Shown: positions 37,792 to 62,570 of the stretch, piece by piece | Layout of the letters: every line of letters starts with the position of its first letter | Position numbering within the stretch: position 1 is the stretch's first letter | NCBI GenBank assembly: GCA_039803545.1 | Contig: JBDRYS010000003.1 | Location: 83,096-147,095 of the forward strand | Length of the DNA: 64,000 nt | Direction of reading: 5' to 3' | Source: a candidate division WOR-3 bacterium | Lineage (GTDB): Bacteria > Hydrothermota > Hydrothermia > UBA1063 | Notes under the pieces: model-generated | The model's input: only the letters and a program-made list of their open reading frames with translations | What the model was told of the DNA's origin: nothing | The model's database searches: none | Made by a program: the position numbers and the translations under genes

Positions 37792-37808
37792 CACGAAAAA
37801 GCACACCT

Positions 37809-37881
37809 GGGGCCGTAGCTCAGCTGGGAGAGCATCAGGCTGGCAGTCTGAAGGTCGTGGGTTCAAATCCCACCGGCTCCA
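37809..37881 (+). tRNA. tRNA-Ala (anticodon GGC)
   Basis: It folds by hand into a 73-nt cloverleaf. The acceptor stem GGGGCCG/CGGCTCC contains the G3:U70 Ala identity pair. The anticodon loop is CTGGCAG and the T-arm is GTGGG-TTCAAAT-CCCAC. No CCA is encoded. Confidence 0.95.
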
Positions 37882-37923
37882 GGTTTCAAACCGTCCTATT
37901 ATATTCTCTATAAAACCCACCAC

Positions 37924-38005
37924 GCGGGGGTGGCGGAACGGCAGACGCGCCAGATTTAGGATCTGGTGGGTTTAGCCCGTGCGGGTTCAAGTCCCGCCTC
38001 CCGCA
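37924..38005 (+). tRNA. tRNA-Leu (anticodon TAG), class II with long variable arm
   Basis: 82 nt. The acceptor stem is GCGGGGG/CTCCCGC, the anticodon stem-loop is CCAGA-TTTAGGA-TCTGG, the long variable arm is TGGGTTTAGCCCGT, and the T-arm is GCGGG-TTCAAGT-CCCGC. No CCA is encoded. Confidence 0.95.
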
Positions 38006-49979: not shown

Positions 49980-50000
49980 AGTTCCATCCTAAAAGCTAAC

Positions 50001-51188
50001 TTAAAAATCATTTACTATCTTTCTAACTTCGTTAACAAAATTAACTTCTGAGAAAGTTTCTGCCCTTTGCGACACACTAACCCTCAAATCCTTCTCCAAC
50101 TCTGGATTTTTCAAAACGTGAATAATTTTTTTAACAGCATCATCTACATCATTATAGCGAAGTTCTTCAATATCCACAATTTCAACCTGCCCGCCACTAT
50201 TATGAACAAAAGGCAAGACTCCGAGTTTAATCATTTCCGCTATTGCGATACCAAAGTGTTCATTAACTTTGCCATGGATCCCATACCTATGGGAACCAAG
50301 TAACTGGGTTAGCTGCTCCCTGTTCAGATCTGTTTCAACAAATAACCAGTCGGTGTTTACCTCGGAAAGGGCAACCACCTCTTTGAAATACCTTTCATTC
50401 CCCGGTTTCCCTACGATGTGAAGGTGTACATTAATCCCACTCTCCCTCACCTTCTTTATAATTTCAATGACCTCTAAATACCTTTTGGTCGGTTCAATCC
50501 TACCAACAGCAACAAACCCCATTTCGCGATCTTCAACGGGCAAGGAATACTTCTTAACCTCGGAAGCAGGGACAAAAACGGGTGGGCAAAGAACCCTCGG
50601 TTTGACCTTATAGGCCGATTCAAAAATCTGTGCTGTCCACATAGAATTGACGAGAGACAAATTCTTCAAAACCTTATTTATATCAAAATCGCTTATTTTA
50701 TGACCAATAATTTCATAAATTTTTCTCACAGGATTGGGCCTATGATACCAGATTTTTGAGTAAGTTTCCTCTTTCAATCTGGAATAATCGTAGCCAACGA
50801 AAAAAGGAAAATGAACATACTGAATACCGCGCTTCCCAAAATCCATTTCATTATAGGTGCTGAAGAAGATGTCAAAATTGTCCTTTAAATTTTTGCAAAC
50901 CCTCATCATATAGTGCTGTCTGAGCAAGGCTAAATGGGACATATTCGTACCCAAGGTCTTAGGTACTTTAAGGCGCATAATTTCAACCTTTTCGGGATCT
51001 ATCGAAGTACCATAAAATTTATTCAAACGCTCTAAGGTTACTTCTTTGTCAAAAGTCAAAAGAGTTACATTGTAATCATCCTGTAAGGCCTGCAAAACCC
51101 AGGAACATACAGATTCTGTTCCACCCCAGCCAAAAAGAGGATGAACAACTGCGATCCTAAGAAGCGATTTCCTCACCTTTCTCTCCAT
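50001..51188 (-). CDS. Glycosyltransferase family 4
   Basis: I prefer the start at M16 (MERKVRKSLLRIAVVHPLFGWGGTESV). The C-terminal region is EHFGIAIAEMIKLGVLPFVHNSGG. Confidence 0.8.
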   Translation of the reverse strand: MERKVRKSLLRIAVVHPLFGWGGTESVCSWVLQALQDDYNVTLLTFDKEVTLERLNKFYGTSIDPEKVEIMRLKVPKTLGTNMSHLALLRQHYMMRVCKNLKDNFDIFFSTYNEMDFGKRGIQYVHFPFFVGYDYSRLKEETYSKIWYHRPNPVRKIYEIIGHKISDFDINKVLKNLSLVNSMWTAQIFESAYKVKPRVLCPPVFVPASEVKKYSLPVEDREMGFVAVGRIEPTKRYLEVIEIIKKVRESGINVHLHIVGKPGNERYFKEVVALSEVNTDWLFVETDLNREQLTQLLGSHRYGIHGKVNEHFGIAIAEMIKLGVLPFVHNSGGQVEIVDIEELRYNDVDDAVKKIIHVLKNPELEKDLRVSVSQRAETFSEVNFVNEVRKIVNDF

Positions 51189-57756: not shown

Positions 57757-58719
57757 TTAATTTGCTATTTTGACATTAAAACCAATTTTTAATGGATTCT
57801 CCTCAATAAGCTCGGTTCCCTGGGAATAGCTGATAAAGGCCTTGCTTAAATTAATTCCAAAATAAAATGGGCTCATTTTATAACCGAGTGCTACATCTAT
57901 TCCAGGTACATAGATGTCCTTCACAAAGCTCTTCTCCAAAACTCCACCTACGCGCAAGAAGGTCATATCGCGGAAAGTATGGGATATTCCAACAGAACCT
58001 AACCAATAATCTGTGAGAGTGGTATCAAGCTTTGAAAATCGCTTATACAAAAATTCAAAATCAATCCTGGCACCTGACTTTACAGCAGGACTGTAATATC
58101 CCGAAAGGGCAACTTGATTTGGCATAGAGTAGTAATTTTCCTCGGGAAATTTTACTTTGGTTGAAAACTGGGTTAAAATTCCAAAGGATTTTGTAGAATA
58201 TCCAAAGGCCGCTACAGGCCTTACAGACCTTTGAACTGACGAGGGCATATCTTTCTTCAGGAGGCCAAGTCCCGTAGCCATTTGAAAACCTGAGAAATTA
58301 AGGGAAACAACAAGACCACCCTCAGAAATACCACCCTTTCTCTCAATTCTTAATGTATCCTCAACCAAGTAACTTGAGTTGTATTGGATTTTTTCATAAA
58401 TGTAGTTCAAATCGACAACTTCTCTGAAATAAAGGTAGGTTTTAAATATCCAGAAGCCCAATCCCAAAAGCACATCTGGCTTTACAAGATAATAATTTCT
58501 TCTCTCGTAGGTGATTTGCCGTCCTACTGTGTTGTTGTAAGAGTCGTAAAGGTACTGATACCTGTATTCGTTAACAAGGGCACTGTTGAAAGTGAAAGAA
58601 ACGTAATATTTCCCAAAGGACTCAAGGAGAGGCAAGCCTCTGCGCTCCAGTTGGTCGCCATACTGAACTCCTGTATATAGATTAGTTAATGATGCAACCA
58701 TCAAAATCAACAACTTCAT
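57757..58719 (-). CDS. Hypothetical outer-membrane beta-barrel-like protein
   Basis: Hydrophobic N-terminus, Y/F/G-rich alternating strands, 320 aa. It overlaps the lspA stop by 4 nt. I recognise no family. Confidence 0.4.
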
Positions 58720-59189
58720 TTTTGACTCCTTTTGGCAAAATATTCCTTAAGTACCATTATAAAGTAAATTGCAAGTCCTATCGAGATGCAGGAGTCGGCA
58801 ACATTAAACACAGGCCACCTTAGAGTGGGTGAAAGGCCGATATCGATAAAGTCTATAACCTCTCTAAAATGTACTCTGTCTGCAATATTGCCAGCGACTC
58901 CCGCCAGAATAACTGCAAAAAGGTTTGCATTTAAAATATTTTTAGATTTAATAGAATCAAGAATCAAAGCAATGAGAAAAACAATGGCAACAACGCCAAG
59001 GATTATGTAAGGAAAATTTCGTCCAAGGGAGATACTCCATAGGGAATGTGGATTACGTACATGGGTGATTTTAACAAACTCTCCAATCAATCTTATTTCC
59101 GAGCCAAGGGGTAGAAACTTTACTACAAGATATTTGGTAATCCTGTCTAAGGAAAAGAGCAAGGCAAAGATGAGAAGTACCTTTTTCAT
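58716..59189 (-). CDS. lspA: Lipoprotein signal peptidase (signal peptidase II)
   Basis: Four TM segments. DRITKYLV, GNIADR and the catalytic-Asp motif FNVADSCISIG; 157 aa. Confidence 0.9.
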   Translation of the reverse strand: MKKVLLIFALLFSLDRITKYLVVKFLPLGSEIRLIGEFVKITHVRNPHSLWSISLGRNFPYIILGVVAIVFLIALILDSIKSKNILNANLFAVILAGVAGNIADRVHFREVIDFIDIGLSPTLRWPVFNVADSCISIGLAIYFIMVLKEYFAKRSQK

Positions 59190-59833
59190 TAAACCAATCT
59201 CAACCAGTTATGGAGCAAGAAGTATATTCTACCAATTAAAAGGGAAATACGTGCCATAATCGTGTAACCAAAGGATGCCCCGAAGGTGATCATTAAGATG
59301 GTTATGCCAACCTTAGAGGACACACCAAGAACCCCTTTGTGTTCCCTGGAGAAATAAAAGTAAAGTATGGTGAATAACGTTCCGAAGACAATAATCAGAT
59401 TATTGAAAGTATAAAGAATCGTCTCACCTACCGTTGAGCCCTTTACAAACAGAGGAAGCATCGACGCTTGAACCTGGGGTACAAGAAATCCTTGAGTTAG
59501 CCCTGTAATACCAAGCCCAGCCGCCATACCAACGGTAAAAGAAATTGACCAAACGGATAGCCAGGAAAGGGGCTTAACGAATCTCAAAAGTATAAAGAGG
59601 GAAAGTATAAGAGGAATAACCAATAAATATCTCTGAACCCCTACCTTCTCAGTGAAACCCATAACCAGCTTAGGATAGGCATCAAAAACCCAGACGTAAA
59701 GCACCATAAAAGCAGCTGAGCTACCCACATATACGTGTTCTGCAAACTTATAAAAGGGATTATCCTTGTACAAAAAGGACAAGATAGCAAGGGTAAAAAA
59801 GGCAGCAACCCAAGTCCAAATTATGTTGCTCAT
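59189..59833 (-). CDS. Uncharacterised polytopic membrane protein (component D of a four-gene operon)
   Basis: 214 aa with about 6 TM segments. A 4-nt overlap links it to the upstream gene and a 1-nt overlap links it to lspA. I recognise no family. Confidence 0.6.
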   Translation of the reverse strand: MSNIIWTWVAAFFTLAILSFLYKDNPFYKFAEHVYVGSSAAFMVLYVWVFDAYPKLVMGFTEKVGVQRYLLVIPLILSLFILLRFVKPLSWLSVWSISFTVGMAAGLGITGLTQGFLVPQVQASMLPLFVKGSTVGETILYTFNNLIIVFGTLFTILYFYFSREHKGVLGVSSKVGITILMITFGASFGYTIMARISLLIGRIYFLLHNWLRLV

Positions 59834-60654
59834 TTCTTCGCCCTCCTTAAAACAAGAAAACCAATGTTACCTATTATTATAAAAGCAATAATTACCAAGT
59901 GAATCACTGACTGCGCAAGCATGCCAATGGATGCCTGACCAGGAATTCCAACAAGGGTCTCATAGTCTGCTGCCCCCCTCAATCCGCCAATAACCGACAC
60001 CACTTGGTTTGCCTGCATATAGGGATAATAGTCCGGAGTCATAACTGCAGTGGTTCCAAGAATGATCGGGAGATTGTATCGTGCATAACCGTACTGAATC
60101 CATGCATCACCCACAGCACCGGCTTCAAGGCCGAACAGAAGCTTAATGTCTTTATAATTTTTCACACTTCTCATAATTGGAAGAGAGTCTATCGGCGTAT
60201 ATTTGTAATCACTGGAAAACACACTCTTTATGTCTTTGCCCATATTTATTATAACTGCTGCCACTCCAGGACGGTACCCCAGGAAAACGTAATCAATACC
60301 ATAAATCTTGTTGTATTTTTTAGCGATATCCTCTAAGGCCTGCTGTCCAAGGGGGAGACCCAACGCCCAGTGCCCTAACATTATAACCTTCAAATTTTTA
60401 CGGAAGGCATGATGTAGGAAGGTTTCCAGCATAGGCTGAAGCTCAGGCATACTTGCGGCATCGTAGTCTATGGAAACCATTACGATTGAACTTTCAGGCA
60501 AACTTTCTATATATTCGTAAGCCTTCTTTACCTCTGGGAGAGGTTCTATCTTCATCGTCTTCTTAGTCAATATGGGAATCGCCGTCGCTAAGAAGACTGT
60601 GAGGTAAATTATCCTCCTGTCGATCCCCGCAAGCTTCTTAAAAAATTCCGTCAT
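59830..60654 (-). CDS. Uncharacterised bitopic protein, TM - about 200-aa soluble domain - TM (component C)
   Basis: It has an N-terminal TM (IIYLTVFLATAIPIL) and a C-terminal TM (VIHLVIIAFIIIGNIGFLVL, followed by RRAKK). The soluble domain is colinear with the C-terminal domain of component A, and both share the GTTAV pentapeptide. Confidence 0.6.
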   Translation of the reverse strand: MTEFFKKLAGIDRRIIYLTVFLATAIPILTKKTMKIEPLPEVKKAYEYIESLPESSIVMVSIDYDAASMPELQPMLETFLHHAFRKNLKVIMLGHWALGLPLGQQALEDIAKKYNKIYGIDYVFLGYRPGVAAVIINMGKDIKSVFSSDYKYTPIDSLPIMRSVKNYKDIKLLFGLEAGAVGDAWIQYGYARYNLPIILGTTAVMTPDYYPYMQANQVVSVIGGLRGAADYETLVGIPGQASIGMLAQSVIHLVIIAFIIIGNIGFLVLRRAKK

Positions 60655-60665
60655 ATTCTCTCCTC

Positions 60666-61460
60666 CTATTTCATATACGTACGTTCAATACCAAGAATAA
60701 TTCTTATGGACATAGCTATTCCACCGAGGGCTATTCCGATCATTATACCTCTCTTCCCGGCCATCTGAGGCACGTTCATTACCCAGTCAGCAAAAGAAGG
60801 TATGTGTTGTTTCAGGTAAACCCACCCAATAGGATATATAAGAGCAATAAAAGCAACAGCAACCAGTATATAAAGAAGTTTGGTTCCCGTTTCAGTAATC
60901 CCTACCGATTCAGCATAGAAATACCATGCAAATATGAGAAATATTACGGTAATTACGTAGGGAGCGGCGCCTTGACCGAGGGGAATTCTCCCTAACATTA
61001 CAATTACTGCGGAAACAAGGAGCAGGGCTGAGTTGAACTCCTTTGCCCTGAAGGCACGGTAAGCGGCACTGGCGATGAAGAATGAAAGGATTGCAAACAT
61101 AGTGGACTGTAAAGGCATAAAAATGGAGTTGTAAAAGTACTTTGAAAAAGTAGAGGTTGGTGAGAAAGGATTATGTTCTGGGGTCCTTACGATCTCAGTT
61201 ACGCCCCAAATCAGTGTAAGGAAAAAACTCAGAATCAAAATTAAGGAGTATGGGGCGTCTTTTTCTTTCCGCCTGATCTTCTTAAAATTGTATTCCAAAA
61301 GACTATCAATACCAAGAAGCATCGTAAAACCGGAAACGATGATGTACCAATCGTTGAAGATCTCCTCAAGGTTTCCGAAGGGCTTATGGGGAATAAATAG
61401 GGCTAAAACAAGCAAGAATCCCGAAATAAACGTTATCGCGAGTGGAATCTCTTTTTTCAT
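60666..61460 (-). CDS. Uncharacterised polytopic membrane protein (component B)
   Basis: 264 aa with about 7-8 TM segments. Motifs: AAYRAFRAK and GIALGGIAMSIRIILG. It starts 9 nt after component A. Confidence 0.6.
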   Translation of the reverse strand: MKKEIPLAITFISGFLLVLALFIPHKPFGNLEEIFNDWYIIVSGFTMLLGIDSLLEYNFKKIRRKEKDAPYSLILILSFFLTLIWGVTEIVRTPEHNPFSPTSTFSKYFYNSIFMPLQSTMFAILSFFIASAAYRAFRAKEFNSALLLVSAVIVMLGRIPLGQGAAPYVITVIFLIFAWYFYAESVGITETGTKLLYILVAVAFIALIYPIGWVYLKQHIPSFADWVMNVPQMAGKRGIMIGIALGGIAMSIRIILGIERTYMK

Positions 61461-61469
61461 CTCACCCTC

Positions 61470-62570
61470 CTAAAAAATGTTAAAGAAGTTAATAAGCATA
61501 TGATTACCTATACCAAAAGTTTCCATAAGTGAACCAATGAGAATAATTATCACAAGTACCATTTTAATGTAGTCTTCACCCTTTATGGTACCGAGTGAAA
61601 GGGCATCCCTCGAAAGGTAGGCACTGGCCGCATACATTTCCTCTCCAATTAAAGTGTAATCAGTGGAAGCGATAAAGAAAGGTAGCTGCGTGACCGCTGT
61701 GGTTCCAGATATCTGGATAGCACCAATGGAATGTCCGGTTTCTGCCAGGATCAGAGATTCGGCGTAAAAGTAACCTTGGAGAAATACTGCACCAGGCCTC
61801 TGCCTCATCATAATACCATCAACTCCAGCCGCATAGCCAAACTGGTCTGAAGTAAGGAAGTAAATATTGGATTCTTTATACAAATCGGGCCTGCCAGCCT
61901 CAATATAACCCTCTTTTACCGTTTCTTGGGCTGCAACCATTACAATTGGATCATAGCACGGTACAATTACATCTGCCTCATACTCCGCAGCCTTATAGGC
62001 AACCCTCTTCAAAATAGCAAGAGAGGCTACAGTTGGAATGTCACTGATATAACCCAACCCCATTATATAAAGTATTGGTCTTCCCATTTCCGTGGAGCGC
62101 CCAACGGCCTCGTCGATAGCCTCAAGACCCGCAATCTTCCTGATAAAGAGATTCTTATCTACTCTTGCCCTCATAATGAAATAGAGGAGGAAGGCAGTAT
62201 AAATCAAAATGATAATCAATACCGATAACCTTTTGGAGTTGAACCACTGCTGAGTACTTATTGCGGGTTCAGTGGTTCTACCTTCAGCCACCAAGGTATC
62301 TCCATGGTAAATCAGAACTCTGTAATAGTAGGGTTTTTTATCCATAACACCTATATCTTGAAACTGGGTTTCCGGCTTAAACAGAGTTTCAATCAATGTA
62401 TCAGGTGCATTGAGATCCTGAGTCCTGTAGATTTCTATTCGGCTAACCACCCAAGAACTATCAAGTTCCCAGGTTATTGTAATGCTTCCCCCTGCATCGT
62501 TTGGTGTATCGTAGGCTTTCATATTAACGGGGGAAGCTTGCCACAAAAATAAGAGGATAGCGAGCTTCAT
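61470..62570 (-). CDS. Uncharacterised membrane protein: signal peptide, Fn3/Ig-like domain, TM, about 200-aa soluble domain, TM (component A)
   Basis: MKLAILLFLW.., then YDTPNDAGGSITITWELD..YYYRVLIY (Fn3-like), a TM (LSVLIIILIYTAFLLYFIM), a soluble domain paralogous to component C, and a C-terminal TM. Confidence 0.6.
   Translation of the reverse strand: MKLAILLFLWQASPVNMKAYDTPNDAGGSITITWELDSSWVVSRIEIYRTQDLNAPDTLIETLFKPETQFQDIGVMDKKPYYYRVLIYHGDTLVAEGRTTEPAISTQQWFNSKRLSVLIIILIYTAFLLYFIMRARVDKNLFIRKIAGLEAIDEAVGRSTEMGRPILYIMGLGYISDIPTVASLAILKRVAYKAAEYEADVIVPCYDPIVMVAAQETVKEGYIEAGRPDLYKESNIYFLTSDQFGYAAGVDGIMMRQRPGAVFLQGYFYAESLILAETGHSIGAIQISGTTAVTQLPFFIASTDYTLIGEEMYAASAYLSRDALSLGTIKGEDYIKMVLVIIILIGSLMETFGIGNHMLINFFNIF

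Follow-up and report, generated by a model that had tools for sequence, protein, structure and literature searches.

The DUF6754 system of a candidate division WOR-3 bacterium, a conserved four-gene membrane cassette set apart from described systems by sequence searches

Several described membrane systems partly resemble a cluster of four genes, here called A, B, C and D, which lies on the minus strand of a 64,000-nucleotide stretch of DNA from a candidate division WOR-3 bacterium (GenBank assembly GCA_039803545.1, contig JBDRYS010000003.1, positions 83,096 to 147,095; "the window" refers to this whole stretch). The Rnf/Na+-NQR complexes are loosely paralleled by A-D, in which the predicted topology gives a pair of polytopic subunits, each about 210 aa long, with N-termini on opposite sides of the membrane (B and D) and a bitopic subunit with a periplasmic domain (C). 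Moreover, in other phyla A-D have a soluble putative partner, X374, with a faint RnfC_N-like barrel-sandwich-hybrid (BSH) signal. However, A-D show no Rnf-Nqr, FMN_bind or NQR matches and lack conserved Cys, flavin sites and an NqrB/RnfD-like subunit, and A has two transmembrane (TM) helices only, together with a unique cytoplasmic domain. Neither PF02508 (RnfA/E-NqrD/E) nor FMN_bind was matched by any of 33 B, 32 D and 30 C family members at E values up to 5. A-D recall the SecDF/RND proteins in a pattern that occurs twice, namely a bitopic element whose loop domain is large and, after it, about six TM helices. On the other hand, A-D have no sequence match to SecDF/RND, the two loop domains would face opposite sides according to the predicted topology, the duplication is statistically unsupported, and no conserved membrane-embedded Asp or Arg proton relay was seen. 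The GlmL/MutL family (PF13941) consists of ASKHA proteins from the operons for glutamate mutase and ornithine aminomutase. In about 20 loci, a gene upstream of ABCD encodes a protein of about 615 aa that matches PF13941 with an E value of 3e-129, but this protein has no B12-enzyme partner nearby, falls below the GlmL cut-offs and is not encoded in the window.

More distant comparisons gave less. With regard to MotAB/ExbBD/TolQR, there was no MotA_ExbB match in Pfam and no invariant Asp or Glu in the TM helix cores of A and C. ABC, ECF and PTS transporters were rejected on finding no ABC_tran, EIIC or EIID match and no P-loop protein within the cassette. Analogies with PTS-Man IIC/IID, Mtr-like complexes, Na+-decarboxylases, DsbD-like proteins and the type IV pilus (T4P)/type II secretion system (T2SS) platform were rejected as well, as no family match or defining motif was found. 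The PADLOC anti-phage defence models had no match among A-D at E values up to 0.01. What remains is DUF6754 (PF20539), a family without known function of which A is a full-length member, and the Pfam entry omits B, C, D and the four-gene unit. We infer that A-D form a self-contained cytoplasmic-membrane complex, the DUF6754 system, which is categorically uncharacterised, its separation from known systems being at the level of sequence.

The evidence for a unit of four genes comes from its distribution. One genome per GTDB species was scanned with a degenerate pattern for A, by which at least 580 species were found to encode a relative, and the best 80 loci were analysed. They span at least ten phyla, including WOR-3, Stahlbacteria, Edwardsbacteria, Eisenbacteria, Zixibacteria, Ignavibacteria, Fermentibacteria/Aegiribacteria, Coatesbacteria, Cloacimonadota and Poribacteria. 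Across them we found 94 complete A-B-C-D cassettes in identical order, with nine more cut by contig ends, and the genes flanking the cassette vary between lineages. Two or three cassettes occur at eighteen loci, nearly always in tandem; locus L056 has two convergent copies. Three cassettes are seen at L026, L031, L033, L044, L057 and L079, and two at L011, L018, L019, L021, L025, L046, L047, L060, L066, L071 and others. A given copy in an Ignavibacteria array is 70-76% identical to the copy at the same place in a Zixibacteria array, compared with about 50% among copies within one locus. Because each copy is closest to its counterpart in the other phylum and not to its neighbours, the tandem copies are, on sequence identity, ancient paralogues. 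Among the D-family representatives, one protein (P0451) joins a complete C to a complete D by way of an additional TM linker. Near-invariant order with changing flanks, tandem duplication of the whole cassette and the C-D fusion together make an obligate four-subunit inner-membrane complex a well-supported prediction. The DUF6754 system is typical of candidate phyla related to FCB (WOR-3, Stahlbacteria, Zixibacteria, Ignavibacteria, Fermentibacteria and others) and of Poribacteria.

This distribution bears out two proposals of a preliminary description of the locus, made from the sequence of the window: that the A-B-C-D block travels together, and that it encodes a so far undescribed, heteromeric machine of the envelope or membrane. 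Our searches returned no characterised homologue, and no paper mentioning DUF6754 or PF13941 was found, while searches for GlmL gave nothing relevant. The same description had proposed a duplicated origin of the machine and its welding to lspA and an outer-membrane protein gene, and neither of these was supported, so that its interpretation is supported in part. Its observations, too, are confirmed in part: the open reading frames (ORFs), their junctions, an Fn3-like domain and the common layout of A and C are as described, but A is not an orphan, the similarity of A to C and of B to D is at chance level, and the tight coupling of the genes is nothing special. These points are taken up below.

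Gene A (61470-62570, minus strand, 366 aa) encodes a signal peptide, an exported Fn3-like domain, a TM helix, a predicted cytoplasmic DUF6754 domain and a C-terminal TM helix. Residues 106-355 match PF20539 at 377 bits (E 4.8e-113; gathering threshold 27 bits) over profile positions 2-251 of 257. The earlier description could match none of the four proteins to a characterised family; A does have a Pfam family, itself uncharacterised, and B, C and D have none. Homologues of A fill at least 8000 clusters at 90% identity. The Fn3-like domain (62271-62537, minus strand; aa ~12-100, after a short signal peptide at aa 1-~13) had been noticed before, and three lines of evidence now agree on it. A profile search of the Protein Data Bank (PDB) with hmmsearch matched titin Fn3 (E 4.8e-7), Foldseek matched the Fn3 domains of neogenin and titin (E 4e-6, TM-score on the target 0.6-0.7), and the AlphaFold2 (AF2) model is confident there (pLDDT 83-93, about 90). 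It was also the sole match in PDB sequence and profile searches with A-D, X374 and a 320-aa ORF downstream; in the Foldseek search with the A model, Fn3 matches swamped the result. The DUF6754 region (61506-62255, minus strand) comprises the first TM helix (aa 112-137), an alpha/beta domain and the C-terminal helix (aa 323-352). Between phyla, A and its alpha/beta domain keep 50-60% identity, and about 70 columns of A are invariant; its conserved polar residues are those of the motif G-E-D-x-x-K and of the whole domain. The domain is predicted to lie in the cytoplasm, because Lys and Arg counts across the family are 4.0 after the first TM helix and 0.8 before it (positive-inside rule), which is consistent with an exported Fn3 domain. 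The AF2 model of A has a mean pLDDT of 73.5.

Gene C (59830-60654, minus strand, 274 aa) has a TM helix at aa 13-30, an alpha/beta domain at aa ~32-240 and a long C-terminal TM helix at aa 240-273. Its AF2 model (pLDDT 93, pTM 0.88) shows a Rossmann-like domain with six parallel strands. Foldseek against the PDB gave generic Rossmann or GT-B half-domain matches only (best E 7e-4, TM-score ~0.3). Positive-inside counts across the family place both tails of C in the cytoplasm, and the alpha/beta domain is therefore predicted to be periplasmic. An I-D-R-R motif is invariant, as are three polar residues in the C-terminal TM helix (Q248, H252 and N263).

The remaining two genes encode polytopic membrane proteins. 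B (60666-61460, minus strand, 264 aa) has a core of six TM helices, a predicted cytoplasmic N-terminus and the invariant residues S131, A132, R135 and F137 (motif A-Y-R-A-F-R-A) in a predicted cytoplasmic loop. A 51-aa insertion specific to its clade (aa 166-216; 60813-60965, minus strand) forms a hairpin of two TM helices and is missing from most homologues, which are 204-233 aa long; because of this insertion the phmmer matches of B are split. D (59189-59833, minus strand, 214 aa) has six or seven TM helices. Its invariant residues N25, Y28 and E32 (K-D-N-P-F-Y-K-F-A-E-H) and S162 (S-x-E-H-K-G) fall in predicted cytoplasmic loops, and H33 and H165 are nearly invariant. The D family comprises 1958 clusters at 50% identity. 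Its N-terminus is predicted to be outside, because the C-D fusion has the extra linker TM helix and some homologues carry signal-anchored N-terminal extensions. Among further D homologues (P0404, P0415, P0444, P0472 and others), many carry a helical-looking insertion of 100-380 aa in the loop near aa 133 and others such an extension; a scan of the long variants for inserted domains recognised none. For B, C and D alike, no family was found in Pfam, NCBIfam, PADLOC or PDB sequences, and the pooled weak Pfam matches of the 33 B, 30 C and 32 D family members were scattered noise with no recurrent family.

Directly upstream of the cassette or array, and on its strand, about 20 loci carry a module of four further genes. 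These loci represent at least six phyla (Eisenbacteria, Ignavibacteria, Zixibacteria, Fermentibacteria, Aegiribacteria and Coatesbacteria). An example of the module is L067:5910-9813 (plus strand); others are at L017, L018, L021, L022, L025, L026, L034, L040, L052, L055-L057, L059, L075, L077 and L079. The module encodes s138, a small membrane protein of PH-like appearance to the eye, a label backed by no Pfam match; s123, a small hairpin membrane protein; the ASKHA protein of about 615 aa of the GlmL/MutL family; and X374, a soluble protein of about 374 aa. The GlmL-like protein reaches 234 bits compared with the NCBIfam GlmL cut-off of 475 and has a C-terminal extension of about 130 aa. X374 matched no family and nothing in PDB sequence or profile searches; some of its members give faint RnfC_N or biotin-lipoyl BSH signals. 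Downstream of the cassette, the genes ExbB-ExbD-ExbD-TonB lie about 3 kb from D in seven to eight loci (L016, L027, L028, L036, L040, L059 and L067), and in Fermentibacteria-like loci they are preceded by a TonB-dependent receptor of about 920 aa (CarboxypepD_reg, Plug and barrel). In WOR-3 loci a DUF4388 (PATAN-like) protein is encoded directly after D.

Nearly all invariant polar residues of B, of D, of the termini of C and of the A domain fall at the predicted cytoplasmic face of the membrane, and none in the predicted membrane core of A-D is an invariant acidic residue. Because the invariant polar residues cluster there, the cytoplasmic face would be the probable working site of the complex. 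The reading that we put forward, tentatively and as a little less than an even chance, is an envelope-directed translocase or flippase-like enzyme complex, with which a GlmL-type ATPase and a BSH protein would work in many phyla. In such a complex, A would present its Fn3 domain to the periplasm and its strongly conserved alpha/beta domain to the cytoplasm, C would hold its Rossmann-like alpha/beta domain in the periplasm, and B (N-terminus inside) and D (N-terminus outside) would form the polytopic membrane core. A substrate may be taken up or modified at the inner leaflet or cytoplasmic face, and the substrate or a signal may then cross the membrane to the periplasmic modules of C and Fn3. 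In many phyla the co-encoded GlmL/MutL-family ATPase and the BSH protein would cooperate, as partners that are not adjacent in the lineage of the window.

Several facts weigh against this reading. None of s138, s123, the GlmL-like protein and X374 is encoded in the 64-kb window, the module is missing within 6-10 kb of the WOR-3 and Poribacteria loci, and the X374 homologues of Hydrothermota (L086 and L087) stand alone with no GlmL-like neighbour. Because of this pattern, coupling to an ATPase may not apply in the lineage of the window. Next to two A genes, both of WOR-3 (L014 and L072), B, C and D could not be recognised by HMM at E values up to 10. The most conserved stretch of A (aa 245-306) has a pLDDT below 50, and this part may need a partner for folding. 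Moreover, substrate, transport and catalysis are all putative for A-D, the topology is a prediction from positive-inside statistics and a few fusion or extension proteins, and the fold of B or D might match a known class of transporter or enzyme, their separation being by sequence. As a separate observation, a 197-aa ORF follows A directly at L014:11075-11665.

The bacterium falls within candidate division WOR-3/Hydrothermia, the label of the best matches, which reach 99% identity. The surroundings of A-D in the window differ from those elsewhere. The junctions within the cassette are 9 nt (A/B), 11 nt (B/C) and a 4-nt overlap (C/D); D overlaps lspA by 1 nt, and lspA overlaps the following 320-aa ORF by 4 nt. 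The ORF table agrees exactly with the earlier description in these junctions and in the lengths and strand of the genes. Such spacing had been described as a tight coupling of A-D, but a crude gene map shows 4-nt overlaps or gaps below 25 nt almost everywhere in the window, and the minus-strand run that holds A-D also includes unrelated metabolic genes: ahcY (S-adenosylhomocysteine hydrolase) upstream, and urocanase and sugar transferases downstream. Promoter-like and terminator-like matches around A-D did not exceed the expectation from shuffled sequence in our scans, and the Rfam scan of the region gave no match. The gene lspA (58716-59189, minus strand) is assigned by Peptidase_A8 (E 3e-30) and by TIGR00077 above its cut-off. 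The 320-aa ORF directly after it (57757-58719, minus strand), described before as resembling a beta-barrel outer-membrane protein (OMP-like), matched nothing in Pfam, NCBIfam, PADLOC or the PDB, and its barrel is putative. The order metK-ahcY-ABCD-lspA-320aa-hutU is kept by relatives with 74-79% identity in A, and the position of the 320-aa ORF is conserved in close Hydrothermia relatives only. In a Hydrothermales genome with 58% identity in A, the order is Lon-ABCD-unknown-IMPDH-TamB. None of lspA, the 320-aa ORF, ahcY and hutU was found within 10 kb in the 80 other loci, and lspA was also absent within 10 kb in L081-L083. The supposed functional link of A-D with lspA and an outer-membrane protein gene is thus an adjacency limited to relatives with A 74-79% identical. 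Elsewhere in the window, tRNA-Ala(GGC) and tRNA-Leu(TAG) at 37808-38005 (plus strand) are the sole RNA genes detected, and positions 49980-51172 are occupied by a 410-aa ORF.

Other explanations of A-D have been considered, among them that of the preliminary description, in which A with B and C with D would be ancient paralogous halves of a pseudo-duplicated heteromer co-expressed with lspA and an outer-membrane protein. The layout of A and C speaks for it: both show TM helix, soluble domain and TM helix, as described, the soluble domains are alpha/beta, and helices and strands come in the same order with similar lengths, aa 245-306 of A being at pLDDT below 50 in the model. B and D, both polytopic and of about 210 aa, each follow a bitopic partner. 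BLASTP of A with C and of B with D gave nothing significant. We then compared family alignments of about 100 sequences each by hhalign, taking in turn the full-length proteins, the soluble domains after trimming, their second halves and the C-terminal tails, and judged the scores against those of profiles shuffled by block or by column. The best alignment of the trimmed soluble domains of A and C indeed pairs the blocks that had been matched by eye (PILYIMG with SIVMVSI, ADVIVPCYDP with LKVIMLGHWA, NIYFLTSDQFGYAAGV with DYVFLGYRPGVAAV and, in the second half, ISGTTAV with ILGTTAV), and the G-T-T-A-V of the last pair occupies invariant or nearly invariant positions in both families. However, the pairing scores at chance level: the trimmed domains reach 17.8 (P 0.07, probability 0.8%), a score also reached by 10 of 60 block shuffles of the C profile, and the second half fares worse, its real score being reached in 45 of 60 shuffles. 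The full-length comparison of A and C gave a probability of 1.5% with TM helices alone paired, and that of B and D a probability of 0.4% (P 0.17; 9 of 40 shuffles). Similarly, the C-terminal helix motif said to be shared by B and D aligns over 19 columns with 42% identity, which 28 of 80 shuffles equal in score. In profile comparison the duplicated architecture of A/C and B/D is therefore at chance level, the outcome named beforehand as refuting it. The colinear secondary structure of A and C is what any two Rossmann-like domains show, and family-wide positive-inside counts predict the two domains on opposite sides of the membrane. With the neighbours lspA and the OMP-like ORF kept in close relatives only and compact spacing throughout the window, we regard this explanation as improbable. 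Slightly less probable still is a version in which the predicted topologies are turned to account, as the membrane core of a hitherto unrecognised class of envelope machine common in FCB-related phyla. It would be an antiparallel pseudo-symmetric heterotetramer in which A and D (N-termini outside) and B and C (N-termini inside) would be remote paralogues of inverted topology (A with C, B with D), driven in most phyla by the ASKHA protein with a BSH adaptor; nothing positive was seen in favour of such paralogy.

An ion-translocating energy converter or stator, either an Rnf/Nqr-like complex or a Mot/Exb/Tol-like motor that would energise outer-membrane processes, is about as improbable as the duplicated heteromer. 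B and D, with about six TM helices each and opposite predicted N-termini, are loosely parallel to RnfA/E, the sizes and topologies recall RnfA/E, RnfG and RnfC if the bitopic C and the faint RnfC_N matches of X374 are included, and the TonB-dependent receptor and Exb/TonB genes downstream in seven to eight loci would fit a motor. Against this, no B or D member matches Rnf-Nqr, MotA_ExbB or any ion-pump family even at an E value of 5, B, C and D have no invariant Cys for Fe or flavin sites, the invariant charges lie at the cytoplasmic boundary and not in the membrane core, where no acidic residue is invariant, and the Exb/TonB neighbourhood is confined to some lineages. We consider a membrane-anchored enzyme complex somewhat less unlikely. 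It would not be a transporter and could, for example, modify a lipid-linked or envelope precursor by catalytic Rossmann-like domains on both faces of the membrane. Rossmann-fold binding sites are usually at the C-termini of beta-strands, and it is near the predicted C-termini of strands that the Asp, Glu, Arg, His and Thr residues invariant in C and A would seem to fall. Invariant Arg, His and Tyr occur in the cytoplasmic loops of B and D, and the GlmL-type partner comes from a family of enzyme-associated ATPases. In Foldseek, C also weakly resembles GT-B half-domains, UDP-GlcNAc 2-epimerase and hydrolases of the LOG-like or isochorismatase-like type, but these matches are generic (TM-score ~0.3, best E 7e-4), no catalytic motif belonging to a known family was found, and the polytopic B and D have no recognisable enzyme domain. 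Finally, the tight packing of every gene in the window and the unrelated metabolic genes in the same run could suggest that four membrane genes without any relation came together by chance because the genome is compact. This idea has practically no probability left, being refuted by the same-order cassettes in at least ten phyla with changing flanks, by the duplications of the whole cassette and by the C-D fusion.

A-D are a strongly conserved inner-membrane module across whole candidate phyla, for which we found no characterised relative or literature, and of the four proteins A alone has a DUF entry. Invariant and widespread membrane complexes usually serve a core envelope or bioenergetic task. 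Defining A-D would annotate thousands of genes now called hypothetical in WOR-3, Zixibacteria, Ignavibacteria, Fermentibacteria, Poribacteria and related groups. To our knowledge, an ASKHA-fold ATPase is used for energising by no known bacterial transporter or translocase. The pairing with a GlmL-type ASKHA protein, if true, would give that family a role beyond the reactivation of B12 enzymes and might reveal a new coupling of ATP to a process in the membrane.

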